IMG/VR virus record: IMGVR_UViG_3300035670_000134
Reading direction: 5' to 3' (one strand)
Length of the DNA stretch: 20,000 nt
Source of the DNA: an uncultured virus (IMG/VR IMGVR_UViG_3300035670_000134)
Lineage: Duplodnaviria > Heunggongvirae > Uroviricota > Caudoviricetes
Under the pieces are notes generated by a model. It saw only the letters and a program-made list of their open reading frames with translations, had not been told where the DNA came from and searched no databases. The translations under genes were made by a program, and so were the position numbers. The first letter of the stretch is position 1. Each line of letters opens with the position of its first letter. Below, in pieces: positions 4,242-18,788 of this stretch.

Positions 4242-4254
4242 TAAGGAGATAAAA

Positions 4255-5267: not shown

Positions 5268-5613
5268 TGTTATTGTCGGCTTTAAGGATGAAAAGTCTTT
5301 AAAGCAAATTATTGCTCACTATCAAATAAATGAAGATGACGCAAAGTATTGGTGGGAGTATTTTGGCTTCTCTGGTAGTTCTGTTGAGAAGAAAACAAAG
5401 ACCCGGAAAAAGAATCATATCTTTGAGTTTCTTAAAGAGAATGCCGGTTCAGAGATTACTGTAAAAGATCTTTGTGATAAGTGTTCTATTAGCCAGCCAA
5501 CAGCATACAAGTTTGTTAACGATAATATTGGATGGTTCAAAAAAGTTAAACGAGGTTTATACCTTATTGTCGATGCTGATGAAGAAAGAAAGAAGGCAAA
5601 GAGCAATGGGTGA
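5176..5613 (+). CDS. Putative winged-HTH DNA-binding protein
   Basis: C-terminal IFEFLKEN..EITVKDLCDKCSISQPTAYKFV...FKKVKRGLY has a wHTH pattern. Confidence 0.65.
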   Translation: MISFQEQERLMKIVNAQHSLKNSEKTRAGASVIVGFKDEKSLKQIIAHYQINEDDAKYWWEYFGFSGSSVEKKTKTRKKNHIFEFLKENAGSEITVKDLCDKCSISQPTAYKFVNDNIGWFKKVKRGLYLIVDADEERKKAKSNG

Positions 5614-5902
5614 AATAGAATACGCTGTCCGTGAACATGACGTAACCAATGAAGAAGACTTAGTTCAGGGAACTGTAATGTATACAGTTTATGGTAAGAA
5701 TGGGCCTTGGCATGATATGGTTACTGGTCCCGCAGATTATTGCTGGGAGATTGTTGACGCACTTCAGTTCGTTGAGGAAATAAGAAGAGAAGAACGTAAA
5801 GTGTACGGTGAAAATGATACTGTTCGGGCACGTCGTAACCCACCAAAAACAGCCCATGTTGACACAACGAAGACAGGGTCTGTTATATACTATAAGTCAT
5901 GA
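5606..5902 (+). CDS. Hypothetical protein
   Basis: ATG 5606 overlaps the previous stop. Protein begins MGEIEYAVRE. Confidence 0.65.
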   Translation: MGEIEYAVREHDVTNEEDLVQGTVMYTVYGKNGPWHDMVTGPADYCWEIVDALQFVEEIRREERKVYGENDTVRARRNPPKTAHVDTTKTGSVIYYKS

Positions 5903-6063
5903 ACGATAAAGGTTCAGACCCCATCGGGCCAGAATCAATTATTATTCTAAGATGCTGCCGGGACTGGCCGGTTCAGGCTATGATCGCTATGAGAAAAGGA
6001 GGCAGATGTGGATTCTGCGGAAGAGATCCAGAAGTCGTCTTTGAACGATACACAAGACAGTGA
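5899..6063 (+). CDS. Small Cys-rich protein (54 aa), below the ORF-track cutoff
   Basis: ATGA overlap with the upstream stop. Translation MNDKGSDPIGPESIIILRCCRDWPVQAMIAMRKGGRCGFCGRDPEVVFERYTRQ contains CC...CxxC. Confidence 0.5.
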   Translation: MNDKGSDPIGPESIIILRCCRDWPVQAMIAMRKGGRCGFCGRDPEVVFERYTRQ

Positions 6064-6403
6064 TGAACCTTTAGAGGAAGTTCTCTCTATTTTAGGTGAC
6101 ATTGCTGCTGAGATAGAAAGCGGTGCTGAAGTTAAAATGAAGCACCCATCAGATTTTTATTATTCAGCAGCACAAGAAGTTATAGAACTCAAAGCCCGGA
6201 TTAATGAGCTCGAGATTATGCTTGATGGTGCCAAGAAAGGCGTTGAAAGATATGTCTTCGGTAAACTTGAAATCACTGACGAGCAAGGTGAAGTAATCAC
6301 TGTGCTTGATGAGTGGGTTTCTAGAGAGCTTATTGAAGGCGCAATTTCAACATATGTAATAAAGGGAATCATTAAAGGAACAGAGTATCTTGAAAACAAT
6401 TGA
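6008..6403 (+). CDS. Hypothetical acidic/coiled-coil protein
   Basis: Open frame with AAGGAGG upstream. The true start could be ATG 6137. Confidence 0.65.
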   Translation: MDSAEEIQKSSLNDTQDSDEPLEEVLSILGDIAAEIESGAEVKMKHPSDFYYSAAQEVIELKARINELEIMLDGAKKGVERYVFGKLEITDEQGEVITVLDEWVSRELIEGAISTYVIKGIIKGTEYLENN

Positions 6404-6935
6404 TAAGACATGGCAAGAAGCAGCCAATGAGGCTATTTCTCAAATCTACACGATGACTGTAGAAAAGAACTTTGATCAAAGCCAAACACTCGTTCGTTTT
6501 ATGCGTCATCGGTTTAATCAAGAAATTCAAAAGTTTGAATTTAATCAATCTATGACCGTAGAAACAGACCCTTCAGTCTGGAGCTTTATTGGTCGTCATG
6601 CTCTTAGGCTATTGTATCTTGAAGGATACTATCCTGCTCAAAACTATGTTGTAGAACTTTTGATTCGCAAGCAAAAGGATTATGGTCCTGAGAACATTGC
6701 CCGGTTTGGGAATGTGGGTCTTCTTATCAGAATGCACGACAAGATTGCCCGGTTAGAAAACATTCTTGAACGTTCCAAGAATAATTTCAACACGGCGGTT
6801 TCTGTCAATATGGTAGAGGACGAAACCATTATCGATACCCTTATCGATATTATCGGGTATTCGGCTATCGCTATCATGTGGTCAACAATCGATGCCGAGG
6901 GGCGGCGGGCCTTCCTTTACCGTGTGGCCGACTGA
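6390..6935 (+). CDS. DUF1599 / nucleotide-modification-associated domain 1 (Nmad1)-like protein
   Basis: RKQKDYGPENI...GLLIRMHDKIARLEN...DETIIDTLIDIIGYS matches the KxxDYG / RxxDKxxR / ExxxDTxxDxxxY pattern of this all-alpha family. Confidence 0.8.
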   Translation: MKTIDKTWQEAANEAISQIYTMTVEKNFDQSQTLVRFMRHRFNQEIQKFEFNQSMTVETDPSVWSFIGRHALRLLYLEGYYPAQNYVVELLIRKQKDYGPENIARFGNVGLLIRMHDKIARLENILERSKNNFNTAVSVNMVEDETIIDTLIDIIGYSAIAIMWSTIDAEGRRAFLYRVAD

Positions 6936-6946
6936 ACTACTAGGGA

Positions 6947-6992
6947 TTGCGTGCAATTGCGTGCAGTTGCGTGCAGTTGCGTGCAGTTGCGT
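6947..6992. repeat. Tandem 10-bp repeat GTGCAGTTGC, about 4.5 copies
   Basis: Directly visible: ttgc GTGCAATTGC GTGCAGTTGC GTGCAGTTGC GTGCAGTTGC gt, flanked by TAGGG on both sides. Confidence 0.95.
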
Positions 6993-7003
6993 AGGGTTGA
7001 TTA

Positions 7004-7540
7004 ATGAATCTTCAATATCTTGACTTCAAATACGGCATCCGGCCTCATGAGGCCAAATGGCTTATGTCATGCGACCATCTTGCCAAAACGTTTTCAACAT
7101 GTGCGAAACGCCAATATTTTGCCGTTATCATCGGTGACAACAAACGTTTGTTATCACAAGGATACAACGGGTCACCGCCCGGCATGGGGCATTGTAACGA
7201 AGGATATTGTCCGAGATACAAAAACGGTTCCCCGTCGGGCAGCATATATGACGACTGCATCGCCACACACGCCGAAGCAAACGCCATCATGTGGGCCGAC
7301 CCGCACGCCCGCAAAGACGCCACGCTTATTATAAATGGCTCTCCCTGCTATGGATGTGCCAAATTGATAGTTAACAGCGGCATACGGCGAATTATAGGGC
7401 AATCAGACGAAACCTACGCACAAGAGCAGCACGTATACAGCTTCCTACTTCAGAACAGAATTGACACAATTCTGCTGAAGAAAAATGAAAACCGGAAAAT
7501 CCGTCAGATTATCGATCAACACATATCGTCTATCTTGTGA
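7004..7540 (+). CDS. Deoxycytidylate (dCMP) deaminase
   Basis: STCAKRQ, GYNGSPPG..HC, HAEANAI and PCYGCAKLIVNSGI zinc-deaminase motifs. Confidence 0.93.
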   Translation: MNLQYLDFKYGIRPHEAKWLMSCDHLAKTFSTCAKRQYFAVIIGDNKRLLSQGYNGSPPGMGHCNEGYCPRYKNGSPSGSIYDDCIATHAEANAIMWADPHARKDATLIINGSPCYGCAKLIVNSGIRRIIGQSDETYAQEQHVYSFLLQNRIDTILLKKNENRKIRQIIDQHISSIL

Positions 7541-7625
7541 CTCAACCTATAGCTCCCTATTCTGTAGAGCCTAACAAAACTTAAAACCAGCTCTAACCCC
7601 CCAGATTTTTCCCAAAGTCTTCCCC

Positions 7626-7650
7626 AGCCCGGCTAACCCCCGGGCTTTTT
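7626..7650 (+). terminator. Intrinsic terminator closing the AT-rich + strand operon
   Basis: AGCCCGG/CCGGGCT stem followed by a T-run. Confidence 0.7.
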
Positions 7651-7808
7651 CCATTCCCTCAAACTTCCAGCAAAACTATCCTAAGGAAACGCCGACCCAA
7701 AACAGCAAAAAAATTTAATATATATTGGAAGAGGGTAATGCGAAGGCTCCGACCCTTGTATTTACTTGTCTTACCCTGGGTCAATCACCAACAGGGTGAG
7801 ATAGGGGG

Positions 7809-7837
7809 TTGACGTTGGGCGATGGGGTCATTACGGT
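7809..7837 (+). promoter_or_regulatory. Housekeeping-sigma promoter at the start of the GC-rich block
   Basis: TTGACG-N17-TACGGT. Confidence 0.65.
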
Positions 7838-8004
7838 TCCACTCATCGAAGCCGCCCCGGGGCACCGGGCCATAGCGGCGGAGGCCGGTCGGGGCGACCG
7901 AGCACCTAGGTGCGATGCCCCCCCGATCGGGCCGGGATCTAGGTAGCCCGGTACCCTACTGGGGGCGCATGGCGATGCGCCCACGACCCCAAAGGGGGTG
8001 TCCA

Positions 8005-8403
8005 ATGGACGCACTGCTCACGCAGGGTATGTCCAAGCCGACCCGGGATGAGTACACTGCGGCCGCTACTGCGGTCACAGAGTACGCCGGGAGCGGCGCC
8101 GCATCGAACCGGTTCGCCCGGGACGCTGGCAACGTTGCGATGTTTCTCATCGCACTCACGCTGGCCGACCGGATGGATCTCGCCCCGGCCGGACTGGCCG
8201 ACCGGCGAGACTGGGTCCGGTCGGGCGGTTCGGCAGTCACGGCCCGCGACGGTGACTGGGACCGACTGGTCCCGGGCGGTTCACGACCGGACCAACGGTG
8301 CCAGCGTCGGCTTATGTCGGCACTGGCACTGCGGACCGGCCGGGCGATCCGCCTCGACTGGGTCAACGTCGATGGGACATTCTGGCTGGTCCGGACACGG
8401 TGA
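8005..8403 (+). CDS. Hypothetical protein, paralog family A copy 1
   Basis: AAAGGGGG RBS before ATG 8005. Shares SGAASNR, SRPDQxxQRRLMSALAL and RLDW...TFxxVRT with 9440-9808. Confidence 0.85.
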   Translation: MDALLTQGMSKPTRDEYTAAATAVTEYAGSGAASNRFARDAGNVAMFLIALTLADRMDLAPAGLADRRDWVRSGGSAVTARDGDWDRLVPGGSRPDQRCQRRLMSALALRTGRAIRLDWVNVDGTFWLVRTR

Positions 8404-8409
8404 CCGACG

Positions 8410-8434
8410 GTCGGGGGGGTGCGATCCCCCCGAC
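8410..8434 (+). terminator. GC-rich hairpin after family A copy 1
   Basis: GTCGGGGGG...CCCCCCGAC inverted repeat without a U-tract. Confidence 0.5.
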
Positions 8435-8506
8435 CCGGGTCACCCCGGGAGTATCGAATACCGACCGGGCGCACGGAATGCGCCCATGACCCGAAAGGGG
8501 GACGCA

Positions 8507-8794
8507 ATGTCCACACTACAGCGTATCGGGGCCGGTTTCGGCCTCGCCTGCGGCATCATCATCGCCGCTATCGGGATGGATCTCGCATGGGATACCATCG
8601 CATCGGGCGAGTTGGTCGGGGCGTTTATCGTCCTCGCATTCGTCGCCCTGCCCGGGATGGGCACGGTCGTCGGACTCACGGTCGCCATGTACCGGGAGGA
8701 CATGGCCCGGGAGAGCCGGGAGTGCTTGGGCGGTTGGCACTGCTGGTGCCCCGCCTGTACCAACTACCGCACCGGGGTGGATCTCCCCGAATGA
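8507..8794 (+). CDS. Small two-TM membrane protein with Cys/His-rich tail
   Basis: RBS GAAAGGGGG. Two hydrophobic segments followed by CLGGWHCWCPAC. Confidence 0.75.
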   Translation: MSTLQRIGAGFGLACGIIIAAIGMDLAWDTIASGELVGAFIVLAFVALPGMGTVVGLTVAMYREDMARESRECLGGWHCWCPACTNYRTGVDLPE

Positions 8795-8799
8795 CCGGA

Positions 8800-8847
8800 A
8801 CGGCCCCGGGGCTACGGCCCCGGGGCTACGGCCCCGGGGCTACGGCC
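8800..8847. repeat. Tandem 14-bp repeat ACGGCCCCGGGGCT, about 3.4 copies
   Basis: Directly visible. Each unit contains the palindrome GCCCCGGGGC. Confidence 0.95.
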
Positions 8848-8885
8848 ATGTACCGGCCAAGGTCGGGCCGGTCGAGTAGGCCAGG

Positions 8886-9158
8886 GTATCCACAACATAT
8901 CCACAGGCTGTGGACAACGGCATATCCACATGTTTGTCCACACCTGTGGAAAACCCGAGTTATCCACAAATCCACAGGGGTTGTCCACAGGCTTATCCAC
9001 AATCCACAGATTATGGGTGATATCCACAGGGTTTTCCACAACGTTACCCCCAGAATTGTCCACAACCTGTGGAAAACACTGTGTACAACCTGTGGAAAAC
9101 CCCAGGAAATCTGTGGAAAACTTTTTGTCCACAGGGTTATCCACAGCCCTGTGGAAAA
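8886..9158. promoter_or_regulatory. Dense array of about 21 DnaA-box-like 9-mers in both orientations
   Basis: TTATCCACA at 8960, 8993, 9137. TTGTCCACA at 8934, 8981, 9056, 9125 and reverse at 8909. TTTTCCACA at 9032 and reverse at 8945, 9068, 9091, 9112, 9150. Variants at 8886, 8897, 8922, 8968, 9000, 9020, 9080. Confidence 0.9.
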
Positions 9159-9439
9159 CTTTGCCGGGTGTTGGGCGACGCTCTTTCGAAATTGCGCCCA
9201 CACCCGCAACTATGTTAAGAAACACCGTTAGAAATTGAGCAAATGTAATGTTATCGAACGTTGTTATGGTACAGGTGTTGTGAAACCAATACCATTATGC
9301 AACAGCATTATGAAACCATGTTTGGATTATGGGTAGGTTTTCTGGTTGCATTTGCAATCGAGCAGAGTTTGGAATTGGCCAATCTGACTAGATAGGCTGA
9401 CCTTGTTGGTGAACAAGCGAGCCAACAGAAAGGGGAGCC

Positions 9440-9808
9440 ATGAAGGCTCACAAGGTCAGCAAGGAAGAGCAGGAGCAGGCTCTGGCTCTCTGCACAGAGT
9501 GGAAGGAGAGCGGTGCCGCTTCGAATCGGTACAAGGTGGACAAGGCGAACGTCTTGCTCACCGCTCTCGCTCTGAGCGCGACCCGGATGAAGGTCGCTCC
9601 GGCTCCGCTCGCAGAGCGTCGGGAGGCGGTGAAGAGCGGAGCGGTGGAAGCGTTCACCGCAGAGTGGGACGCTCTGGTGGAAGGTGAGAGCCGACCCGAC
9701 CAGAAGGTGCAGCGTCGGCTCATGTCGGCTCTGGCTCTCACCGGAGCGAAGGTGCGGCTCGATTGGTGCCGCATCGGGGATACCTTCTACATCGTCCGCA
9801 CCGGCTGA
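9440..9808 (+). CDS. Hypothetical protein, paralog family A copy 2
   Basis: RBS AAGGGGAG and a possible TTGGAA-N18-TAGGCT promoter upstream. Clearly homologous to 8005-8403. Confidence 0.88.
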   Translation: MKAHKVSKEEQEQALALCTEWKESGAASNRYKVDKANVLLTALALSATRMKVAPAPLAERREAVKSGAVEAFTAEWDALVEGESRPDQKVQRRLMSALALTGAKVRLDWCRIGDTFYIVRTG

Positions 9809-9830
9809 GCCGGAGCGGTACCCTCCCACA

Positions 9831-9863
9831 AGGGAGCCGGTGCTACGGCATCGGCTCCCTTTG
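9831..9863 (+). terminator. Intrinsic terminator
   Basis: AGGGAGCCGGTGC/GCATCGGCTCCCT stem followed by TT. Confidence 0.75.
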
Positions 9864-10110
9864 TCATGTACCGGTGCCAGTCGAGCCAGGATCATCCACC
9901 AACGTTTTTAACGTTAAGAAATAAGATAAGCTACGCCCACGTTTTTAACGTTAAATTATTTACGATGTTTATTATGGGGCTTTAACGTTAACTTCAGTCA
10001 GATACACTTTATGGGATTTTAATTTAACGTTACAAGAAATAGGTTGCAATTGCTTTCGAGATTTGGTTTACTACTACTGTCCCAATGTTTCCTACCAAGG
10101 AGTGTTCGAT

Positions 10111-10491
10111 ATGTCCGATTCAATCATCCCGAATGCCATCGGAATCCAAGATTGGATTACCGATTTCCCCGTCCAGATCCTTACCGTTAACAACGGCGAG
10201 GTGCACTTCAAGGTGGAAATCTTCGGCCGGATCTGCGAAGGCCGTCTCCCCGTCGATTTCTTCAAGTTCATCCCCCCCTACAACGACGGGGGGATTCTTT
10301 GTGGAGAGTGGATTTCTCCACAAGGTTGGGCATGTGCGCCTGCAGTTTGGGCGGATGATCCGTATTCGGGGAAGCCGAGTCGGGCAGATGGACCCTGTGA
10401 TTCGTGCACCAATACTGCTGATGTAATCTGCTCAACCATCAACGAAGAGAAGAGTCTGTGCCAAGACTGTTTCGAAACCTTGTTCTTGTAA
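10111..10491 (+). CDS. Hypothetical protein with C-terminal Cys cluster
   Basis: RBS AAGGAG before ATG 10111. Contains CDSC...C...LCQDC and is followed by a terminator. Confidence 0.75.
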   Translation: MSDSIIPNAIGIQDWITDFPVQILTVNNGEVHFKVEIFGRICEGRLPVDFFKFIPPYNDGGILCGEWISPQGWACAPAVWADDPYSGKPSRADGPCDSCTNTADVICSTINEEKSLCQDCFETLFL

Positions 10492-10513
10492 CCACCTACC
10501 GTTAAGAAACGGA

Positions 10514-10542
10514 AAGACCCCGGCCATCTGGCCGGGGTTTTT
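10514..10542 (+). terminator. Intrinsic terminator
   Basis: GACCCCGGCCA/TGGCCGGGGTT stem plus T-run. Confidence 0.85.
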
Positions 10543-10734
10543 CTTACGTTAAAAACATACTAACGTTAAAAAACACGTAACGTTAAAAAATGGCGGGTGC
10601 TTCGGTGCGAATACCAGCGCCTTGCACCCGTGAGTTTTTAACGTTAACCATACTGAAATTGATTATGGGATCTTAACGTTACCCTTCAGCAAATACACTT
10701 TATGAATTACCAATTTAACGATAGAAGAAAAGTA

Positions 10735-10764
10735 TTGCGTATTGGACTCGACCATGCATAAAAT
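10735..10764 (+). promoter_or_regulatory. Cassette promoter
   Basis: TTGCGT-N18-TAAAAT preceded by an A-rich tract. Confidence 0.6.
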
Positions 10765-10816
10765 GGGCGAAGCCCGGTGGGAATGGCCCACCGGCAGGAC
10801 GGAGGGAGAACCCAAC

Positions 10817-11179
10817 GTGAAGAACGGAACAGAGTACGTCAAGGTCACGAATCTGGAGAACGGTGACAGACTGGCACCGGATTTCATCGAGAAGAATGAA
10901 AAGGTCTGGACGTCCATCATCGTGACCCACAATCTGACGTTGGACGCCGACCATGTCATCGGGAACACGTTCGTTATGAATCAATTCCGCAGGCCGGAAG
11001 TGATCGTGATCGGCACCCTGCCTGCCGGTGTGGTACAGGAATCGGAGTACGGCGATGCAGGCATCGAATTGCACGTTGAGTGCCGGTGGGATTCTCTGGA
11101 GGACGGCTACCAGTGCGCGGCCCGGGGCATCGCCGCTATCCTCGACCCGGACTGCACGTTCGAGCGTTACAAGAAGTAA
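10817..11179 (+). CDS. Hypothetical protein
   Basis: GGAGGGAG RBS before GTG 10817. Bounded by a promoter and a terminator. Confidence 0.75.
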   Translation: MKNGTEYVKVTNLENGDRLAPDFIEKNEKVWTSIIVTHNLTLDADHVIGNTFVMNQFRRPEVIVIGTLPAGVVQESEYGDAGIELHVECRWDSLEDGYQCAARGIAAILDPDCTFERYKK

Positions 11180-11200
11180 TCTACCGTTAAGAACGTCAGA

Positions 11201-11232
11201 GAGGCTCCGGTCGAAAGGCCGGAGCTTTCTTT
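11201..11232 (+). terminator. Intrinsic terminator
   Basis: GGCTCCGGTC-GAAA-GGCCGGAGCT followed by TTCTTT. Confidence 0.85.
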
Positions 11233-11420
11233 GCGTTAAAAATATTCTAACGTTAAGAACATCCTAACGTTAAGAAGGCGGGTGCTTCCGTCAGAATACC
11301 ATGACATTGCACCCGCGAGTTTTTAACGTTAACTATCCTCAAGTTTATTATGTGATCTTAACGTTAATTGTCGTCGTTACCTTTATGGGGAAAATCAATC
11401 CTAACGGTAGATTGATAGAG

Positions 11421-11450
11421 TTGCTTTTTGCTTACCAATGGAACTAGGCT
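11421..11450 (+). promoter_or_regulatory. Cassette promoter
   Basis: TTGCTT-N18-TAGGCT. Confidence 0.55.
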
Positions 11451-11487
11451 AGGGATTCCAAGCAATCCCGACCCGAAAGGAACCGCA

Positions 11488-11757
11488 ATGACGAACCGCG
11501 AAATTTCCGAACTGGCTAACAACATCGTGGACAGACTCCACGAACTGGCCGAGGCAATCGATTCGGTCTACTACGAGGAGTGCGCCGATTCGGCCTGCAC
11601 CAACGCCGAGCCTCTGAACGACACGTTCCGGGTTCTCCGTCATCTTGTTGCTACCGCCGGGCTTGTTAACGCTAGCGGTCTGTGCGACCTGTACAACAAG
11701 CCCGAATGGGTCACGGCGCATGCCTTCATGACCCTTGACTACGAGTGGAACATCTGA
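11488..11757 (+). CDS. Hypothetical protein
   Basis: GAAAGGA RBS before ATG 11488. Protein begins MTNREISELANNIVDRL. Confidence 0.75.
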   Translation: MTNREISELANNIVDRLHELAEAIDSVYYEECADSACTNAEPLNDTFRVLRHLVATAGLVNASGLCDLYNKPEWVTAHAFMTLDYEWNI

Positions 11758-11776
11758 CCGTTAAAAAGGAGAAGCC

Positions 11777-11878
11777 ATGAACCACCCGTTGGGATGGGAG
11801 TTCACCGTTAACTTCTGGATCGTGGTGCTCTGTACATGGGGCATCATCGGTCTGGTACTCAGAGGGAAGGGGGACTGA
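11777..11878 (+). CDS. 33-aa single-TM peptide, not in the ORF track
   Basis: AAGGAG RBS. Translation MNHPLGWEFTVNFWIVVLCTWGIIGLVLRGKGD ends just before a terminator. Confidence 0.6.
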   Translation: MNHPLGWEFTVNFWIVVLCTWGIIGLVLRGKGD

Positions 11879-11886
11879 ACGTTAAG

Positions 11887-11915
11887 AACCCGGGGAGGTG
11901 GACCCCGGGTTTTTT
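11887..11915 (+). terminator. Intrinsic terminator
   Basis: AACCCGGGG/CCCCGGGTT stem plus T-run. Confidence 0.85.
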
Positions 11916-12089
11916 AACGCTTGAAATATTCTTAACGTTAAAAGCTGGCGGGCGTAACGTTAAACGACGCTTAACGTTACGCCCGCAGATTTTTAACGAT
12001 AAGAAAGCACAAGTTTATTATGAGATTCTAACGTTACTATTCACTTAATACACTTTATGGATTACCAATTTAACATTACAAAAAAAGTG

Positions 12090-12117
12090 TTGACTATGTA
12101 TGCCGTTCTGCTAGGAT
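12090..12117 (+). promoter_or_regulatory. Promoter for a probably leaderless transcript
   Basis: TTGACT-N16-TAGGAT with extended TGn. ATG lies 6 nt downstream with no RBS. Confidence 0.7.
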
Positions 12118-12123
12118 TCCGGT

Positions 12124-12327
12124 ATGAAGAAATGGGAGAAGGAAATAGCCGAACTAGCAGCCGAGTTCGGCAGGGCTATCGTTAAGACAAACGGTGGTCA
12201 CTACAAACTAGTTCGCCCTGGCTCTCAACCGGTGTTCGTTTCTTCCACACCATCAGACTTCAGAACGTTAAAGAATACTCGTCGGGATCTACGGCGACAT
12301 GACAACCGGGAAGGAGGTGAACGTTAA
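12124..12327 (+). CDS. HicA-like (dsRBD-fold) toxin/mRNA interferase-like protein
   Basis: 67 aa basic protein with G..IVKTNGGHYKL..PG...VFVSSTPSD.R...N.R.DLRR, the pattern of phage HicA-like proteins with the conserved His in GH. Confidence 0.7.
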   Translation: MKKWEKEIAELAAEFGRAIVKTNGGHYKLVRPGSQPVFVSSTPSDFRTLKNTRRDLRRHDNREGGER

Positions 12328-12328
12328 A

Positions 12329-12484
12329 ATGAAGAAGATGTATTACGTCTGGAATGGCTACTACGTCGAACATCAGGGCACGAAGGAGTCCTGCGAGGAG
12401 TTCATCCGTAACGCTAAGTACATGTTCGGCACGACCGGCCTGTCCATCGTCATCCAGAAGAACGGACGTTACGTCCCCGCCTGA
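12329..12484 (+). CDS. Hypothetical small protein (51 aa)
   Basis: AAGGAGG upstream. Protein begins MKKMYYVWNGYYVEH and is followed by a terminator. Confidence 0.7.
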   Translation: MKKMYYVWNGYYVEHQGTKESCEEFIRNAKYMFGTTGLSIVIQKNGRYVPA

Positions 12485-12492
12485 ACGTTAAG

Positions 12493-12526
12493 AATCCGGC
12501 TCTTACCCCCCGAGAGCCGGATTTTT
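12493..12526 (+). terminator. Intrinsic terminator
   Basis: AATCCGGCTCT/AGAGCCGGATT stem plus TTT. Confidence 0.85.
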
Positions 12527-12858
12527 AACGCTTAGACAAAAGTTAACGTTAAAATGCGGGTGTAACGTTAAGCACACCATTAACGTTACACCCGGGGTTT
12601 TTAACGTTAAGATTCGTCTGGCTTGAGTTTATGTTTTTAACGTTAGCCCGCCCTTTATGGAGCTTAACGTTAGGCAATCGACATGAGCTTTATTAACGAT
12701 AGCCGGAAGTTAACGTTACGGGGCAAACTCGACCCAGATCACCGTAATGAGATCGTAATAATCCTGTAACGTGTCTGTCACCACAAACGCAGTCGGATTA
12801 GGTATCGTTCTAGGTGTTGGGAACAAGCCCAACACAGAGCACCGAAAGGGTGACCGAC

Positions 12859-13158
12859 ATGGCAGCGAACAAGAACAACGACTGGGCATTCGAAGAGATC
12901 GACGAGAGCGAGATCACGGCCGTGCGCCGGGGGCGCAAGAGCAACGTCGATCCGGCGTTTGTGGAGGCTCTCAAGGGGATGACCCCCGGCCGGGCGATCC
13001 GCATCCCGGCGCAGGCTCTCGATCCCAAGGCACCGACCTACAAGACCGACAAGGCCCGGGTCTCGGCCTCGCTCCGCACGGCGATGCGTGCGGCCGGTCA
13101 CACGTCGTTCACGATCGTGTTCTCCCCGGAGGGTGTCCCGCAGATCCGTCTCAAGTGA
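12859..13158 (+). CDS. Small basic putative DNA-binding protein, paralog family B copy 1
   Basis: GAAAGGG RBS, 99 aa, RRGRKS motif. 72/99 identical to 14147-14446 by manual ungapped alignment. Confidence 0.88.
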   Translation: MAANKNNDWAFEEIDESEITAVRRGRKSNVDPAFVEALKGMTPGRAIRIPAQALDPKAPTYKTDKARVSASLRTAMRAAGHTSFTIVFSPEGVPQIRLK

Positions 13159-13178
13159 CCCCCCATCCCCCCCCGGAC

Positions 13179-13208
13179 AGCCCCCGGCCAACAGGCCGGG
13201 GGTTTGTT
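13179..13208 (+). terminator. Intrinsic terminator
   Basis: GCCCCCGGCC/GGCCGGGGGT stem plus TTGTT. Confidence 0.8.
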
Positions 13209-13446
13209 CGTGGTCGAGTACTCCTAACGTTAAGAACCTCCTAACGTTAATTTTTTTTGACGATAGAATCTTAACGTTAAAGACTCATTCCTTAACGTTA
13301 AGAACGGCGGGCGTAACCGTAACAACAAGTAGTGTTACGCCCGTGGATTTTTAACGTTAAATGTTGCTATCTTTATTATGTGTTTTTAACGTTAAACCTT
13401 AGCCATAAACTTTACACCTCGACCAATTAACATTAGAAAAAAAGGC

Positions 13447-13474
13447 TTGTGATCCTGGCCTAATCTGATAACCT
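13447..13474 (+). promoter_or_regulatory. Promoter for a probably leaderless transcript
   Basis: TTGTGA-N16-TAACCT with TGn. ATG lies 6 nt downstream, the same geometry as 12090-12124 (both end GGT-ATG). Confidence 0.6.
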
Positions 13475-13480
13475 ACTGGT

Positions 13481-13795
13481 ATGCGAATGAGTGAACGTAC
13501 CCCATGTCAGAACTGCGGTCTCCGGATGGCCGTCCCCGCTGTGCTCTGCACCCGCTGTGCGGCGTCCAGAGAGATTCGGGAACAGTTTAACGTTTGGACT
13601 CCGGCCGACCTTGACCTGACCGACCTGACCCATACCGAGCGCATGCTCGCATTCATCTATTGCGTGACCGGTGACATTTCCGACTACTTCGATCACTTTG
13701 TCGTTAAGAACGACGAGGTCGAGGAAGAGGACACTCTTAACGTTTCGATCAGGTACTGTGATAATCGGATTAACTTCGGTAAATACAGGGCATAG
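13481..13795 (+). CDS. Hypothetical zinc-ribbon protein
   Basis: CQNC-x10-CTRC. Bounded by a promoter and a terminator hairpin at 13808-13835. Confidence 0.75.
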   Translation: MRMSERTPCQNCGLRMAVPAVLCTRCAASREIREQFNVWTPADLDLTDLTHTERMLAFIYCVTGDISDYFDHFVVKNDEVEEEDTLNVSIRYCDNRINFGKYRA

Positions 13796-14146
13796 TCCTA
13801 CCGTTAAAAACCCCGGCATCCAGTCGGGGCTTTTTAACGCTTAAAAATATGTTAACGTTAAAATCGGAGGGTGTAACGTTAAAAGCCCTTAACGTTACAC
13901 CCGAGCGGTTTTTAACGTTAAGATTATGAAGTTGAGTATGAATTCTTAACGTTAACCCGGCCTTTATGGGACTTAACGTTAACCAATCTCTTTATGAGCT
14001 CTTAACGATACATACTCGACCGCACTCGACCGCCTCCTGGTTGCATTTGCAACTATCGGATAGGGTGGAAATGTTGGGATGGGCGATAGCGTTTCCAATG
14101 TCACCTAAGGGACTGAAACGGAAGTAGGTCCAGAACGGAGAATGAC

Positions 14147-14446
14147 ATGGCAGGAAAGACGACTCACGGATGGGACTTCGAGGAGATCCCTGAGGACGAG
14201 ATTCAGGCGGTCAGGCGTGGACGGAAGTCCAACGTGGACCCGGCTCTGGTGGACGGACTGCGGACCCTCACGCCGGGTCGCGCCATCCGCATCCCCTCGC
14301 AGAAGTTGGACCCGACCGCGGCCAACTACCGGACGGAGAAGGCGCGCGTGTCCGCATCCCTGCGGGTCGCCATGCGCGCGGCGGGGCACACCTCCTTCGC
14401 CATCATCTTCTCGCCCGACGGCGTTCCGCAGATTCGCCTGAAGTGA
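14147..14446 (+). CDS. Small basic putative DNA-binding protein, paralog family B copy 2
   Basis: GGAG RBS, 99 aa, homologous to 12859-13158. Confidence 0.88.
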   Translation: MAGKTTHGWDFEEIPEDEIQAVRRGRKSNVDPALVDGLRTLTPGRAIRIPSQKLDPTAANYRTEKARVSASLRVAMRAAGHTSFAIIFSPDGVPQIRLK

Positions 14447-14453
14447 CCGGTGT

Positions 14454-14483
14454 GCCGGTGAGGGTCGAGTGACCCTCACCGGC
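14454..14483 (+). terminator. 13-bp perfect hairpin after family B copy 2
   Basis: GCCGGTGAGGGTC-GAGT-GACCCTCACCGGC. Confidence 0.7.
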
Positions 14484-15594
14484 CAGGGTCTACCGTTAAA
14501 TTTTTTTTCGGTCGAGTTTCTTAACGTTAAAAGCCAGGGGAGAAGAAGTTAACGTTAAGAAACAACCCGAGTCAGAACTTAACGTTAAGAACCGGCGGGC
14601 GTGACCGATTGATCGGTGAAATGACACGCCCGTTTATTTTTAACGTTAAGAATTCAAAAAGTTTAATGTATTTCCTAATCCGTTTTCTCATCATTTATCC
14701 AATCTATTAATTCTAATTACCTTTATGGGTAACGTTATGCTAATACTGGTTCGTTTTTAACGTTAAGAATGGGTTCAGGTGGAGTATGCGGTCTTAACGT
14801 TAAGTTCCTATGACTGATCTATTCCCTTACTCAATCCCTTATCTCTTGTTACCTTTATGCTCGACCTATATAGGGAGCAGTATAGGTAGCAGTATAGGTA
14901 CCTAAACCCTGGCGGATTAGATGTCTATATCTCTAGGGAATAAGAACACTTAATAGACCCCCAAAATCCCCCGCAACTTTCGTTGTATATATCATCGTTG
15001 TAATTTGGACTAATAGGGTCATTAAATCGATCACCGTCCAAATCGACACATTTCCCCCCACATTTGCCGGTTGTACGATAGTTATATCTATCAGTTCTTT
15101 TTTTATTTAACGTAGATCCCTTTATGGGCGTACCTACACTACGTTAGGTTACTGAAGACATAGATAAACCCTTACCCAACCCGGCCGGGTTAAAGTGTTC
15201 TTCTTCCTATATAGGGGTATACACACAACCAATAAGCCTATCTATTAATTTACCTAGGGATAGATAAAAAAAGGCGGGTTAAGTGTTTCTATTCTCCTAT
15301 ATAGGGGAGAACACAACACCTAACCCGCCTAATTTCTTAAAACTGTTAAAAATCCCTAGGAAAATAACAAAAAGCGTACCTTTCTGAGCAAAAACACCAG
15401 CAAATTCAACACATCCTGAGCTTTATTGTGCACATAAACCGAGAACGCTGGACACGTTTAGGGTATTTGCTGTATCAATCTATGAAGGAATTAATAGAGG
15501 TGTATCGATATCTGGGGAGTGTAGATACATCTATCTATGTATGTTCCTATATACATAATACCTACCCTAACCCCGCCGGGGTTCGTACCTCTAT

Positions 15595-15819
15595 TCAGAA
15601 AGGTTCATTCGGATCGTATTGCTTATTAGGATACGTATTCTCATGAATACCGGCATATGTTTCCCAACGGACCGACCTTATCTGATATACAACAGTCCAT
15701 CGTGTATCACAGCCAACACACTCATACTCTTCAATCATCTCATTAGGAGGCATATCCATACGTGACTGAAAATCACCATACGATTCCCCGCACTCAGGAC
15801 ACATATCAGGCTCTTTCAT
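15595..15819 (-). CDS. Hypothetical zinc-ribbon protein
   Basis: CPEC...CVGC. GGAGG precedes ATG 15819. Last gene of the minus-strand run. Confidence 0.7.
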   Translation of the reverse strand: MKEPDMCPECGESYGDFQSRMDMPPNEMIEEYECVGCDTRWTVVYQIRSVRWETYAGIHENTYPNKQYDPNEPF

Positions 15820-16009
15820 TAGCCGCCTCCATAGCATGGAAAGCACACTCGAACAGATTCACTTCATTACCCAAAGAATCAAACCAAACCCCCGAAGAAT
15901 CCTTGTAGTAATCAGAATCCCAACCCCACTCTTCAAGATTAAGGTAATCATTAGAAGCCAACCAGGCACCCAACCTTGTACCCTGAGAGAACAAAAGCCT
16001 ATTATCCAT
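15806..16009 (-). CDS. Hypothetical protein
   Basis: GGAGGAG RBS and overlapping start/stop with neighbours. Confidence 0.7.
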   Translation of the reverse strand: MDNRLLFSQGTRLGAWLASNDYLNLEEWGWDSDYYKDSSGVWFDSLGNEVNLFECAFHAMEAANERA

Positions 16010-16218
16010 CAGTACTCCTCCCCGCTAGAATCAAACAAAGAAAAAGTCCTACTCGTTGACCTAAACTCTGTATGCAGAAGATTGTCGATATGAATCAAAA
16101 CATCATCAAGATCAGGATTCTCATTACCAGAAGCAATAAGCTCCCGAACAATATCCTCAGTCACATAACGAACACTCAGAACAGCATCAAAGTATTCCGG
16201 CATATCATTCTTCATCAT
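16009..16218 (-). CDS. Hypothetical protein
   Basis: AAGGAG RBS supports a start at 16218 rather than 16305. Confidence 0.65.
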   Translation of the reverse strand: MMKNDMPEYFDAVLSVRYVTEDIVRELIASGNENPDLDDVLIHIDNLLHTEFRSTSRTFSLFDSSGEEY

Positions 16219-16225
16219 GTTCTCC

Positions 16226-16453
16226 TTATCCATTGACAACGATCCTTTTCGCAATTTCCTTAGCCGCATCTGACCAATACTCGCCACCTTTGTCCATCGC
16301 ATCAATAGGATGCTTCAAAGTAGCGACATACCATTCGAGTTCCCTAGATCCTTCAGCCCACTCACAAGCATCATCAAAACTTGCGAAAGGACCAAAAAGC
16401 TCGAACCCCTCAAAGATATTTCCCGATAAAACTATATAAATCTTATCCATCAT
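16226..16453 (-). CDS. Hypothetical protein
   Basis: GGAGGG RBS. The G...GFELFGPF...A.EW pattern is common in small phage proteins. Confidence 0.7.
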   Translation of the reverse strand: MMDKIYIVLSGNIFEGFELFGPFASFDDACEWAEGSRELEWYVATLKHPIDAMDKGGEYWSDAAKEIAKRIVVNG

Positions 16454-16649
16454 AACCCTCCGGCATAATCGAATAACTATCTTCCATAGTCATACCTAAA
16501 GTACCACCACGGTCCCACTTCACATGCAAAGTCAAAGCATCATCCTCATATAAAACAGTTCCCTTATCCCCACACTTAAGATCAGTGTAAGGATCAGTAC
16601 AATGCTGAAGAATGACCCTTCGACCGGCTAAAGTCCTATCCAAATGCAT
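16443..16649 (-). CDS. DUF4314-like small beta-barrel protein
   Basis: GRRVIL..CTDPY..L..GDKGTV...DD...LHVKWDRG..LG matches the DUF4314 pattern. GGAGG RBS. Confidence 0.75.
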   Translation of the reverse strand: MHLDRTLAGRRVILQHCTDPYTDLKCGDKGTVLYEDDALTLHVKWDRGGTLGMTMEDSYSIMPEGYDG

Positions 16650-16792
16650 AGCAAACTACCTCCACAGTCCTCTCAGACCCCTCTAATTTTGCTTCTAAGA
16701 CGAATAAAGCATGGGGCTTGCAAAACACCCCATGCCCATTCTTAAATTACAATTGTCCTTATGATAATTGTTTTGTAGTATTAGGATTATTC

Positions 16793-16990
16793 TTAGGTAT
16801 GATTCTTGAGATAAAGAACAAATTCTTCGAAAGAAAAATCTTCAAAGAGTTCCATGTTTCTTTCCTCATAGAAGTATTCGTAAAGTGCTGGAATATCGAA
16901 TTGACCAGAACCGGCCCTTCTCACAAGCACTTCACCTCCGTCAGAAACAACAATATCATCACCCATTATGATTGATGACCCATTGCTCAT
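16793..16990 (-). CDS. Hypothetical acidic protein
   Basis: Co-oriented ORF in the minus-strand run. Confidence 0.55.
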   Translation of the reverse strand: MSNGSSIIMGDDIVVSDGGEVLVRRAGSGQFDIPALYEYFYEERNMELFEDFSFEEFVLYLKNHT

Positions 16991-17231
16991 TCACAAAATC
17001 AGATGACAAATTTCGTGGATGGAAAACATAGTTGTTTCCATCGATACAGGTAAAGCTAATTTCGTGTTTATTCGCAAGCCTAAACATCATCATATCAATG
17101 CTCTGATCCAGAGCATCACCCACAGGACGACCCATATCCAAATGAACACCGTCCAGATCGGATATCAAATCATCCAACTCAATAAAAGTTTCATCATCAA
17201 ACGCCATAGTGTAAATAGTTAGATTGTTCAC
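16959..17231 (-). CDS. Hypothetical protein
   Basis: GGGAG before GTG 17231. Acidic, 90 aa. Confidence 0.6.
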   Translation of the reverse strand: MNNLTIYTMAFDDETFIELDDLISDLDGVHLDMGRPVGDALDQSIDMMMFRLANKHEISFTCIDGNNYVFHPRNLSSDFVNEQWVINHNG

Positions 17232-17248
17232 ATCACTCCCACATGTAA

Positions 17249-17452
17249 TTAGAGTTGGACCTTGAGACACCCTTGCGAGCATCCATTCTTTTGACCTTCT
17301 TCCCAGAAAAACCCACGAAGGAACTTCCTGTCACAAGAAGGGCAAACATACCACCTATTACCCATACCAATGTAACGAACATGCTTACCAATCGTCTCAT
17401 TCTTCTGCTTCTCATTGCTAGCCAACTTTGCCGGCTTCTTACCTGCCATCAC
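17249..17452 (-). CDS. Hypothetical zinc-finger protein
   Basis: CPSC...CSQGC. Overlaps the upstream stop. Confidence 0.65.
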   Translation of the reverse strand: MMAGKKPAKLASNEKQKNETIGKHVRYIGMGNRWYVCPSCDRKFLRGFFWEEGQKNGCSQGCLKVQL

Positions 17453-17778
17453 TCACCATCCTTTACTTTTGTGTGGAACATTCTATCAAGATCATCGCCT
17501 TCAAGATTCTTAATCATATCGAAATATTCTTCTTCATGAAAGAACTCTGGAAGACCGAACATAAACCCGGGACCATTACCTTCTGGATCTTGTGAAAGCT
17601 CACAGTCAAATGTGTTCTTGTCTTTATCCTCAAGAACAAGAACAGTCCAGAATGAATTATCATATTCATCGTATCGAGCCTTGACCCCGACAACTTTACA
17701 ACCAACAAGAGATTTGTAATATCCCTTGATCCAATCTGCCTGAGCAATCAAAGATCTCTTTGCACCATCATAAAGCAT
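17449..17778 (-). CDS. Hypothetical protein
   Basis: Coupled start/stop. The LSQDPEGNGPGF motif is typical of a small phage protein family. Confidence 0.75.
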   Translation of the reverse strand: MLYDGAKRSLIAQADWIKGYYKSLVGCKVVGVKARYDEYDNSFWTVLVLEDKDKNTFDCELSQDPEGNGPGFMFGLPEFFHEEEYFDMIKNLEGDDLDRMFHTKVKDGE

Positions 17779-18353
17779 CAGTAATCACCCCTACCGCAAA
17801 GAAGTTCATAGTCACCGCTTAGAACACCACGAATTGCTTTAGCCGCAATCTTTGGAGTGACAAGAGACAGATCAAAGCCAATATAAGGGTCTAGATCAAG
17901 ACCAAGATCACTTGCATATTCCTGCCAGAACCGATTGTGCTCGTCATCAGTAAATAGAGCAGCACCTTCCTCTTTTGTCAGACCAAGGTAATCACAAGCC
18001 TCAAGCAAAATAGGAAGATGAGCAGCATATGAATCAACTGTATTGTCATACAACTGACCGCCAGTACGATCTTGTACCGTTTCAGCATGTGGACGATTGA
18101 CAGCAAAATCATGCTTTAGAACAACAGCCCAGCCAGCAATACATGCAGCACTATCGCAGTCATACCCATTCATCTTCTGGATAGTATTCGTAACAAAAGG
18201 AAGATCCTTATGCTCTTCAGGATCTTCACCGTAAGTGCTAGGAACAACAGTTTCACCACGGTATGTGGAAAACCAGTTGCCCATATCAAACTTCATAGGC
18301 TTAAGGCTGTCAAGAAGATCGGCCAATAGTGACATTCTTTCTTTATTCATCAT
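17778..18353 (-). CDS. Hypothetical protein, paralog family C copy 1
   Basis: AAGGAG RBS. Reads MNKERMSLLADLLD...CDSAACIAGWAV. Confidence 0.85.
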   Translation of the reverse strand: MMNKERMSLLADLLDSLKPMKFDMGNWFSTYRGETVVPSTYGEDPEEHKDLPFVTNTIQKMNGYDCDSAACIAGWAVVLKHDFAVNRPHAETVQDRTGGQLYDNTVDSYAAHLPILLEACDYLGLTKEEGAALFTDDEHNRFWQEYASDLGLDLDPYIGFDLSLVTPKIAAKAIRGVLSGDYELLCGRGDY

Positions 18354-18365
18354 ATTCTCCTTTGA

Positions 18366-18788
18366 TCAGAGTTCCCACTCGCCACTTACAATCTTACGCA
18401 AACCATAGGCAGCACCTTTACTGCTTAAATCATCAGCACTATCTTCACCCAAACCAACCTCATAAGCATGCTCAGCCCATATACTAAGAGAAGAATAGTA
18501 AAAGAGTCGATGACGCTGTTCATCAGTAAGGTCCAAATAATTTACAGCTCTATCTTCAATAGTATTAATGTTGCAATCAACAACTTCTAAATCATTTTCA
18601 AGAGCAACAGCCCAACCAGCAATACAAGCAGCAGTATTACACTTGTAAGCAGACAAATCAACCATGTCTTGACAAAAATGATCTCCGCTATCTTCGTCAT
18701 AATCAGAAGTCCAATACTGAATATTAAACTGTTGTGGTTGAATTGTATCTAGCAGATCTGCTAGAAGCAGCATTCTTTCCTTATTCAC
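18366..18788 (-). CDS. Hypothetical protein, paralog family C copy 2
   Basis: GGAGG RBS and GTG start. Reads NKERMLLLADLLD...CNTAACIAGWAV. Confidence 0.85.
   Translation of the reverse strand: MNKERMLLLADLLDTIQPQQFNIQYWTSDYDEDSGDHFCQDMVDLSAYKCNTAACIAGWAVALENDLEVVDCNINTIEDRAVNYLDLTDEQRHRLFYYSSLSIWAEHAYEVGLGEDSADDLSSKGAAYGLRKIVSGEWEL

Follow-up and report, generated by a model that had tools for sequence, protein, structure and literature searches.

The DNA analysed here, a stretch of 20,000 nucleotides (the window) from an uncultured virus of the Caudoviricetes (IMG/VR record IMGVR_UViG_3300035670_000134), carries on its + strand an array of nine small genes, A to I, set among eight long repetitive spacers (Table 1). 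The array lies at the end of the non-structural arm of an uncultured actinophage, a plastic region given over to accessory genes, and its genes are mostly orphans: none of the nine matches a Pfam family, and only E matches a PHROG, one of unassigned function. A, B, C and H encode acidic proteins (pI 4.1-4.9), and E, F, G and I basic ones. A first-pass annotation had described single-gene expression units with mostly unrelated cargo. Most units do hold one gene, but C-D and E-F are pairs, giving nine genes in what are very probably seven insulated transcription units, and the cargo is unrelated apart from G and I, which are paralogs (72.7% identical). G+C content is 0.39-0.46 in the spacers, 0.50-0.67 in the array genes (up to 0.86 at third codon positions) and about 0.36-0.47 in the backbone elsewhere in the window.

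One ordered series of motifs recurs in all eight spacers, as the first-pass annotation had proposed; gap reading, alignment, hairpin folding and profile search all confirm it. The spacers measure 245-374 bp, except for the eighth, which runs for 414 bp to position 14860 and continues into non-coding DNA. The series opens at the stop codon with a half-site, CGTTAA(G/A)AA, followed by a GC-rich hairpin (T1) and a T run (TTTTTTAACGCTT). One to four copies of TAACGTTAA(A/G)AA (R sites) lead to a second hairpin (T2, GGCGGGYG ... CRCCCGC), whose stem consists of two palindromes in spacers 4, 5 and 7. Next come TTTTTAACGTTAA, 12-14 nt and (G)TTTATTATG, and then (GATC)TTAACGTTA(A), 13-16 nt and (ACA)CTTTATG. 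After about 10 nt the series closes with a degenerate TTAAC(G/A)(T/A)TA, an A tract (AGAAGAAAAGT), TTGnnn, 16-18 nt and TAnnnT. Each spacer holds two modules of the form palindrome, about 13 nt, CTTTAT, the first of which reads as TTAACG-N17-TATTAT, a sequence present in spacers 3, 4 and 6; one palindrome (site 1) overlaps its -35 and another (site 2) lies just past its -10. Spacer 1 is partial, as had been noted, and retains only the right arm of T2. With two terminators, palindromes and CTTTATG elements, the spacers are indeed far more elaborate than a promoter plus terminator.

Table 1. Genes, spacers and flanking features of the array, with positions in the window
Feature	Position	Strand	Description
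Spacer 1 (partial)	9809..10110	+	T1, right arm of T2 only, three palindrome modules, promoter TTGCAA-N17-TTTACT
Gene A	10111..10491	+	126 aa, acidic (pI 4.1), C-terminal Cys pairs; no relative among the loci compared
Spacer 2, first half	10492..10816	+	Half-site CGTTAAGAA, T1 (10505-10548), 2 R sites, T2 (10588-10640)
Spacer 2, second half	10492..10816	+	TTTTTAACGTTAA, TTGATTATG, site 2, CTTTATG, TTAACGATA, TTGCGT promoter
Gene B	10817..11179	+	120 aa, GTG start, acidic, orphan; one homolog (94% identity) among 5.8 billion clusters; no family match
Spacer 3	11180..11487	+	T1 (11190-11236), 2 R sites, T2 (11274-11325), TTAACG-N17-TATTAT, site 2, CTTTATG, CTAACGGTA, TTGCTT promoter
Gene C	11488..11757	+	89 aa, acidic; orthologs in L151, L159, L165 and L188 (45-67% identity)
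Gene D	11777..11878	+	33 aa, hydrophobic, paired with C across a 19-nt gap with half-site and Shine-Dalgarno sequence; ortholog in L151
Spacer 4, first half	11879..12123	+	T1, 1 R site, T2 with two-palindrome stem (11948-11986)
Spacer 4, second half	11879..12123	+	TTAACG-N17-TATTAT, site 2, CTTTATG, TTAACATTA, TTGACT-N16-TAGGAT, 6 nt, ATG
Gene E	12124..12327	+	67 aa, basic, apparently leaderless; phrog_2089 (E 1.9e-13)
Gene F	12329..12484	+	51 aa, basic; just upstream of the G/I genes in most relatives
Spacer 5 (variant)	12485..12858	+	T1, R site, T2 with stem palindromes (12557-12594), four further sites, CTTTATG, long leader
Gene G	12859..13158	+	99 aa, basic (pI 10.0); G/I family, RGRKSNVDP ... 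KARVSA ... SPEGVPQ
Spacer 6, first half	13159..13480	+	T1, 4 R sites, T2 (13304-13354)
Spacer 6, second half	13159..13480	+	TTAACG-N17-TATTAT, site 2, CTTTACA, TTAACATTA, TTGTGA-N16-TAACCT, 6 nt, ATG
Gene H	13481..13795	+	104 aa, acidic, N-terminal Cys pairs, apparently leaderless; 66% identical to L151 2628-2945
Spacer 7 (variant, like spacer 5)	13796..14146	+	Upstream of I; extra sites, long leader
Gene I	14147..14446	+	99 aa, basic; paralog of G
Spacer 8 (terminal)	14447..14860	+	T1, 3 R sites, T2 (14594-14644), further sites, two CTTTATG; precedes no gene
Non-coding stretch	14861..15594		+ strand block converging on a - strand block of small genes; CCTATATAGG three times, one further CTTTATG
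DnaA-box-like 9-mers	8880..9160	both	About 20 (TTATCCACA, TTGTCCACA, TTTTCCACA), by direct reading, between the small membrane-protein gene and the array
Spacer 0 (degenerate)	9160-9439		Just upstream of the array
Gene f13b	9440..9808	+	122 aa, last conserved gene before the array; paralog of f13a (8005-8403), 52% identical
Ribonucleotide reductase gene	2-400	-	
GT4 glycosyltransferase gene	475-1485	-	
ThyX gene	1896-2591		
dCMP deaminase gene	7004-7540		

Five window spacers and three orthologous spacers from relatives were aligned, and the -35 TTG is invariant across these eight. When the window is searched with an nhmmer profile built on the 177-column core, each of its eight spacers yields a single + strand unit, and a ninth, partial one appears at 14753-14810. 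The profile gives a single weak match in 133 unrelated viral loci, and 156 + strand units in all 30 related loci that share the window's type of palindrome, although three of the eight profile-building sequences come from those loci. Spacer 8, which closes the array, is conserved in L151 and L153 (L numbers denote the contigs and loci compared).

Folding gives free energies of -14 to -33 kcal/mol for T1 and -21.5 to -29 kcal/mol for T2 (z -3.4 to -8.2 against shuffles), with a T run after each. Because an A tract precedes and a T tract follows both hairpins, they would insulate in both directions. An A tract with TTGnnn, N16-18 and TAnnnT can be read upstream of five genes (A, B, C, E and H). 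For E, a gap of 6 nt separates the -10 hexamer from the start codon in the window, in L151 and in L153 (the L159 alignment row ends before the start). H has the same gap in the window and the same -10-to-ATG geometry at its promoter in L151. Neither gene is preceded by a Shine-Dalgarno sequence (12090-12126 and 13447-13483), a trait kept in orthologs, and the transcripts of both are probably leaderless.

Half-sites often stand between a Shine-Dalgarno sequence and a start codon, or right after a stop codon (in L144 and L139, and in the window at 12318-12331 and 11757-11779), which is reminiscent of start-associated sequences. One could suppose that the elements act in RNA, the T1-T2 stretch or the T2 hairpin being a small RNA and the half-sites working within mRNA, a reading that we consider highly improbable. 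It would suit the occurrence of CGTTAA(G/A)AA directly 3' of seven of the ten stop codons of f13b and the array genes (those of A, B, C, D, E, F and H), as well as the half-site between Shine-Dalgarno sequence and start of F and D and the frequent placement of a half-site just before the start codon in lineages with the form TGTAA-NN-TTACA. It sits badly with a T2 loop that is found in both orientations (see below), which alters the sequence of the RNA loop, and with a full site that is a DNA palindrome with symmetric flanks; the only Rfam match in the window at the gathering threshold is its tRNA.

The palindrome TAACGTTA occurs 43 times in the window, against a mean of 0.28 in dinucleotide-preserving shuffles, none of which (0 of 200) reaches 43. 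All copies but an outlier at position 388 (42 of 43) fall within 9909-14802, at four to seven per spacer. Over 382 copies, the consensus of the window-type site is the symmetric 14-bp tTTTAACGTTAAAa, with symmetric flanks. Other motifs are also repeated in the window (TTTTTAACGTTAA 10 times, CTTTATG 10 times and TTATTATG four times).

Relatives were recruited with an alignment of proteins related to G and I (the G/I family), which yielded 16 viral and 68 metagenome loci. A dense local palindrome array is present in all 16 of the former and in 62 of the latter; the six metagenome loci without one are among the most distant (32-41% identity to G/I). The palindrome itself comes in dialects. Among the metagenome loci, 30 have TTAACGTTAA as in the window, 13 have CTAACGTTAG, 17 have TAATATTA types and two have TGTAAG types; viral loci add TGTAAGTTTACA and GTAACATTAC, and some lineages have the form TGTAA-NN-TTACA. 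All dialects share the core T-N-TAA-NN-TTA-N-A, which is 10- to 20-fold more frequent than in shuffles in every lineage tested (for example, 40 against 2.0 in L137 and 18 against 1.4 in L144). The core pattern is absent (0 in 85.7 kb) from the distantly related Streptomyces phage Annadreamy, which has no comparable palindrome array. Confinement to one region recurs: 32 of the 33 copies of CTAACGTTAG in the 90.9-kb genome G002 lie within its first 8.5 kb, and 14 of the 21 copies of TAATATTA in G005 lie within 5-15 kb. The G/I pair closes the array in TTAACGTTAA-type loci; in other lineages the G/I gene comes first or in the middle. CTTTATG stands on the gene strand beside the palindromes in most loci and in every palindrome lineage; readings of it as a -10 on either strand, as the start of a mini-ORF or as a promoter for a single-subunit polymerase were tried, and none fits all copies.

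Beyond these relatives, a scan of viral contigs for palindrome pairs returned 53 loci, some with TAACGTTA arrays of their own but none with the grammar, and a scan for TTTTTAACGTTAA plus TTATG returned 80 loci, none with more than two copies of TAACGTTA. The TAACGTTA-type arrays in contigs unrelated to the window (L013, L015, L021, L024/L037, L041 and L051) are in some cases iteron-like, and a palindrome of this type appears to have been taken up repeatedly as a protein site.

We read the palindromes of the window as operators because the placement of sites 1 and 2 is repressor-like, and we put the chance that they are protein operators at about even. Two other roles for the sites have to be weighed. 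The array might be a decoy, its roughly 40 palindromes soaking up a host DNA-binding protein (a regulator, a nucleoid protein or a defence factor), with the adjoining cluster of DnaA boxes perhaps doing the same for DnaA. The high density of sites in one place would fit, as would the presence of about 20 DnaA boxes beside the array in both the window and L150. A pure sink, however, has no need of sites at fixed positions relative to promoter and terminator, and flanks and centres that vary by sub-lineage fit a co-evolving phage protein better than a conserved host protein; we regard titration as improbable. Somewhat less probable still is that the palindromes are iterons or a partition site, bound by a replication initiator or a ParB-like protein and unconnected with transcription. 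Tandem TAACGTTA-type arrays in unrelated contigs (six copies 23-26 bp apart in L021, six copies 13-30 bp apart in L051) and the neighbouring DnaA boxes would be in keeping with such a role. Against it, the sites of the window extend over 5 kb, interleaved with every gene and not clustered, their spacing shows no single period, and no partition genes were seen in the complete related genome G005.

The first-pass annotation had suggested a modular platform for accessory genes, to be refuted by invariant gene order and content among relatives. Such invariance is not what we see. Gene orders, checked by BLASTP, run f13, TM (the small membrane-protein gene), DnaA boxes, f13, A, B, C-D, E-F, G, H, I in the window; f13 ... 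H, f22, f2, C-D, f55, E-F, G-like, distant G-like in L151; C, E-F, f2, G in L159; F, f2, C, G in L188; and f13, f13, F-C, ..., f2, G, I in L165. In L150, f13, TM and the DnaA boxes are followed by seven genes and then by G and I; of the seven, f2 and f35 alone are shared with other loci. In the window H is flanked by G and I, and in L151 it is upstream of C; the f2 gene precedes C, follows E-F or separates F from C, depending on the contig; and A and B occur, among the loci compared, in the window only. Neighbouring genes have had unequal histories, since their identities differ widely: between L159 and L188, G is 98.6% identical, C 62%, F 67% and f2 44%, while F is 94.5% identical between L159 and L165.

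For the mapping of junctions we used pairs of contigs with at least 88% identity next to the break; the 44 alignment ends include many duplicates, and 11 independent junctions inside arrays could be read from them. (1) Contigs in which f2 precedes G (L157, L159) and contigs in which C precedes G (L156, L158, L188) are homologous from 5-7 nt before the R site preceding T2. (2) L162 becomes homologous to L160, L169, L171 and L173 at TTTT-TAACGTTA, just past T2. The break lies (3) within the right arm of T2 for L157 against L178, and (4) just past a half-site for L156, L157 and L158 against L178. L151 and L153 break (5) at the stop codon of the upstream gene and (6) between the A tract and the -35, f55 following in the one contig and E in the other. 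L150 and L162 break (7) 2 nt before the -35 and (8) within the 3' end of a gene. The last three fall (9) in the -35 (L160 against L173), (10) just past it (L151 against L154) and (11) at the ends of an f2 deletion reaching from CTTTATTA to the next start codon (L169 against L171).

Breakpoints at a fixed motif had been anticipated, and this is borne out in part: 10 of the 11 junctions that could be read fall within a spacer or at the end of a gene, but they do so at several places and share no one core site. They form at least two classes, one between T1 and R-T2 and one between the A tract and the -35. Such classes, lacking a single core, are what one would expect from homologous recombination in conserved spacer segments with subsequent selection for intact units. 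That the units are shuffled through their spacers is, on this evidence, quite probable.

Recombination might instead be driven by DNA structure, the long palindromes extruding as cruciforms or folding while single-stranded and being processed by a RuvC-like or endonuclease VII-like nuclease or by template switching. The spacers would then be active hot spots of exchange, with an integron-like outcome but no integrase, and the palindromes would mark or stabilise the structures. Three of the 11 junctions coincide with an edge of T2 or of one of its flanking sites, and G005 encodes a RuvC-like resolvase and several nucleases. The T2 loop, moreover, is inverted between L156 and L188 in the spacer before G (the loops agree at 8 of 10 positions when one is reverse-complemented and at 2 of 10 as they stand), likewise between L158 and L188, and probably, in a less clear case, between L159 and L153 in the spacer before E. 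This flip-flop reads as a sign of inversion or template switching at an inverted repeat. Contigs of run X6, a 90-96% relative, have joints (11285 to 11982 and 11943 to 13334) inside T2 hairpins with differing loop letters between them, and a contig of run X4 leaves the window sequence right after TTAACGTTAA at 11368. On the other side, T2 is not the sole boundary: four junctions fall at the -35, while a stop codon, a start codon and the interior of a gene account for one each. The X6 and X4 joints are weak because their sides measure only 24-53 nt in repeated DNA, and those of X6 (24-40 nt) are perhaps misplaced; passive loop inversion, for its part, is possible at any inverted repeat. Among contigs of four runs, the candidates for circular excision are two "going back" joints in X6, again with short sides in repeats. 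We hold structure-driven exchange to be unlikely, and equally so a cassette-exchange device without integrase, in which a palindrome-binding protein, possibly of the G/I family, would mark the hairpin spacers for a nuclease or template switching to act on. Were the latter true, co-infecting phages that share a palindrome dialect would exchange whole promoter-gene-terminator units, and differences of dialect would be a compatibility barrier between lineages.

The first-pass annotation had also drawn a comparison with integrons. Integron arrays consist of cassettes bounded by imperfect hairpins, with variable cargo, and the present array resembles them in that hairpins with TAAC/GTTA flanks bound its units and that their content varies among relatives. 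The comparison nonetheless fails, and a site-specific cassette system of this kind is largely refuted, retaining in our estimate only a very slight probability. No integrase is found among the open reading frames (ORFs) of the window, as had been reported, about 57 kb of the genome lying outside it. The five related genomes G002-G006, three of them at least 90% complete, contain no tyrosine recombinase (PF00589; control 14 of 14) and no serine recombinase (working control). Integron cassettes are promoterless and share a common promoter, whereas each unit here has a promoter-like element of its own and is closed by two terminators; the junctions, finally, fall at several places and not at a single core.

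The explanation that we favour therefore joins insulated units read by the host RNA polymerase, shuffling through spacers and a palindromic operator layer; taken as a whole, we rate it somewhat better than even. Host RNA polymerase would read each unit from TTGnnn-N16-18-TAnnnT, probably early, although we infer early expression from the promoter consensus only. T1 would end the upstream gene, and T2, flanked by or built from the palindrome, would be a second strong terminator. One dimeric DNA-binding protein would act at the palindromes of this array only, for shut-off, timing or as a roadblock, and its specificity would drift between lineages while the TAA-NN-TTA core stays. The repeated spacers would provide portable homology for phage recombination genes such as those of G005 (a UvsX-like recombinase, a Cas4-like exonuclease and the RuvC-like resolvase), and whole units would move within and between co-infecting relatives.

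The G/I protein might be thought of as the binder. It has 32 relatives, all metagenomic bar one with an NCBI record, and none with a Pfam family; an Atlas search adds unnamed viral clusters and one cluster with Actinomycetota members. Its AlphaFold model has a pLDDT of 83.6. Foldseek finds nothing in the PDB at E <= 0.001 for this model, and a wide VIA structure search gives a best Z of 5.1, small alpha/beta domains such as R3H scoring about 4-4.5, which is too weak. A homodimer prediction scored 0.11, against a mark of 0.42. Regulator-like Pfam matches were sought among 120 ORFs (the small ORFs and the PHROG-unnamed larger ORFs of G005, plus the - strand ORFs of the window) and amount to two WhiB-like proteins and one weak Clr5-like match.

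Several points weigh against the favoured explanation. As modelled, the G/I protein matches no DNA-binding fold, and among the same 120 ORFs Pfam finds no classical helix-turn-helix or ribbon-helix-helix regulator. The association of G/I with palindrome arrays is partly built in, because the relatives were found through G/I. Promoter and terminator function are read from sequence alone, and a simple promoter scan gives eight sites against 6.5 in shuffles, so that the consensus by itself is weak. In L150 the first CTTTAT element is TATTAC or TATTAG, without the final T of a -10, and the TTAACG-N17-TATTAT promoter may therefore not be general. CTTTATG, kept across all lineages, is given no account. 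The fine junctions come from other contig pairs, because relatives are only 65-78% identical to the window DNA, and junctions in spacers are also to be expected from selection against broken genes.

The relatives allow the phage to be placed. Record G001 is identical in sequence to positions 1-18786 of the window and adds no information on the array. Megablast of the array region and tblastn of the G/I protein against a phage collection gave no match. G005 is a complete relative of 108,687 bp whose ends overlap by 123 bp, which suggests a circular assembly. Its layout is siphovirus-like, with portal, protease, capsid, a 2448-aa tape-measure-like protein, a DnaE-like polymerase and DnaB; the polymerase is nearest (38% identity) to those of the Streptomyces phages Annadreamy, Blueeyedbeauty, Warpy and others. 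Annadreamy (Stanwilliamsviridae) has glycosyltransferase, ribonucleotide reductase and portal laid out as in this lineage, with ThyX read toward the left genome end. All five related genomes carry two WhiB genes each, in a family whose control matched only in Corynebacterium. From these comparisons the window belongs to an uncultured, WhiB-encoding actinophage lineage distantly related to Streptomyces phages such as Annadreamy. The WhiB pairs, the affinity of the polymerase, the Annadreamy layout, the form of the DnaA boxes and the leaderless geometry together point to an actinobacterial host. Judged by synteny with Annadreamy, the array occupies the final block ahead of the position at which that phage has its physical (left) genome end. 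PHROGs name no RNA polymerase among 99 large ORFs of G005; the T7-like RNA polymerase family PF00940 is unmatched in the five relatives, but its control matched nowhere, which makes that result uninformative. G005 also encodes several 2OG-Fe(II) oxygenases, three GT4 glycosyltransferases, MazG and a tryptophan-halogenase-like gene, and DNA or virion modification is possible in the lineage of G002-G006.

Searches of the literature by motif and concept, which were narrow and had subscription journals outside their coverage, found nothing on this lineage or these motifs; the motifs led to unrelated papers, foremost two on toxin-antitoxin systems (one of them on GraA). The closest system in kind is that of the promoter-early stem-loops (PeSLs) of T4-like phages (Arbiol et al. 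2010, PMC2839356; Comeau et al. 2014, PMC4122927), in which a stem-loop terminator is reported to accompany a strong host-type promoter whose upstream region is AT-rich. They are said there to be concentrated in plastic regions upstream of orphan genes, where recombination between them produces insertions, deletions, replacements and modular shuffling (PMC2839356). The comparison with PeSLs, already made in the first-pass annotation, stands as regards the way of working: as far as those accounts go, both systems have composite promoter and stem-loop spacers, a plastic region, orphan genes and spacer-bounded changes between relatives. The carriers differ, PeSL phages being T4-like myoviruses and the present one a siphovirus-like actinophage with a polymerase nearest the Stanwilliamsviridae, and spacers of 245-374 bp with two terminators, four to seven palindromes and CTTTATG elements go beyond PeSLs as described.

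Repeated protein sites are known from other phages of actinobacteria. Stoperators are asymmetric, bound by monomers, present once per gap and spread over the genomes of temperate phages. Those of Cluster A mycobacteriophages are described as many copies of a short repressor site (PMC6550527, PMC9283540). The present sites are similar in being many copies of one site in actinophage intergenic regions, with specificity that differs between sub-lineages; unlike stoperators, they are palindromic, number four to seven per gap and keep to a single array, and neither an integrase nor a known repressor was seen. For the apparently non-temperate Cluster O mycobacteriophages, Cresawn et al. (2015, PMC4351075) report more than 30 copies of 17-bp dyad-symmetric repeats of unknown function, whose density rises toward one end of the genome and for which a dimeric binder is predicted. 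In that description the repeats are mostly untied to promoters, and few if any take part in rearrangements (PMC4351075), whereas the sites described here are held in a fixed promoter and terminator grammar, with junctions beside them. The genome-wide spread of stoperators and Cluster O repeats is likewise not seen, 42 of 43 copies lying in 5 kb of the window. The temperate Streptomyces phage phiC31 has conserved inverted-repeat operators, one per gap, in the gaps of its early region near terminators and promoters, and a known repressor. It shares with the window one operator-type site repeated in actinophage intergenic DNA, but the window has several per gap. In the host-takeover or pre-early modules of SPO1 and T5, which lie in terminal repeats, numerous small genes have a strong early promoter and a terminator apiece. 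They resemble the array in having small, separately driven genes near (here by synteny) a genome end, but they have no palindrome arrays. The layout is known in kind, being PeSL-like, without belonging to the PeSL family itself: another type of phage, much longer spacers, a second terminator and the additional lineage-specific palindrome layer set it apart.

Upstream, the DnaA-box-like cluster accounts for nine of the 10 window matches to TTWTNCACA, where 1.77 would be expected, and is kept in position in L150 (1580-1850), L162, L169, L171 and L173. We take TTGTCCACA to be the high-G+C Gram-positive form of the DnaA box, and the cluster could be a phage origin or a DnaA sink. Gene f13b is 68% identical to L165 1188-1589 and matches neither Pfam nor PHROG families. 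It lies with f13a and the gene for a 95-aa membrane protein (8507-8794) in an island of raised G+C (7600-9900; 0.55-0.69 against about 0.40 in the backbone). A tRNA-Arg(TCT) is also encoded in the window.

Downstream, the non-coding stretch past spacer 8 may adjoin the physical genome end. The 10-bp palindrome CCTATATAGG(GG) occurs there at 14866, 15198 and 15296, two copies being preceded by GGCGGGTTAA(A/G)TGTT, and is found also in L151 and L153; it is a candidate for the promoters of the - strand block or for a packaging or end signal. L153 and L154, 99% identical over 4.4 kb, diverge fully (at 4427 and 4499) 5 nt past the last CTTTATG of the terminal spacer, a point that could be a genome end or a terminal-repeat boundary.

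The gain, loss and expression of orphan accessory genes in lytic phages are understood in detail only for T4-like phages, through their PeSLs. An unrelated actinophage lineage would here have reached the same layout and added a palindrome layer whose core is kept while its flanks vary by lineage. The palindrome and its putative binder would form a pair of site and protein that appears to co-evolve. The roughly 150 spacer units with visible junctions provide a data set for modular exchange, and the spacers a natural set of promoter and terminator parts for actinobacteria, including putative leaderless promoters. The small acidic and basic orphan proteins that they drive are a place to look for host-takeover or anti-defence functions.

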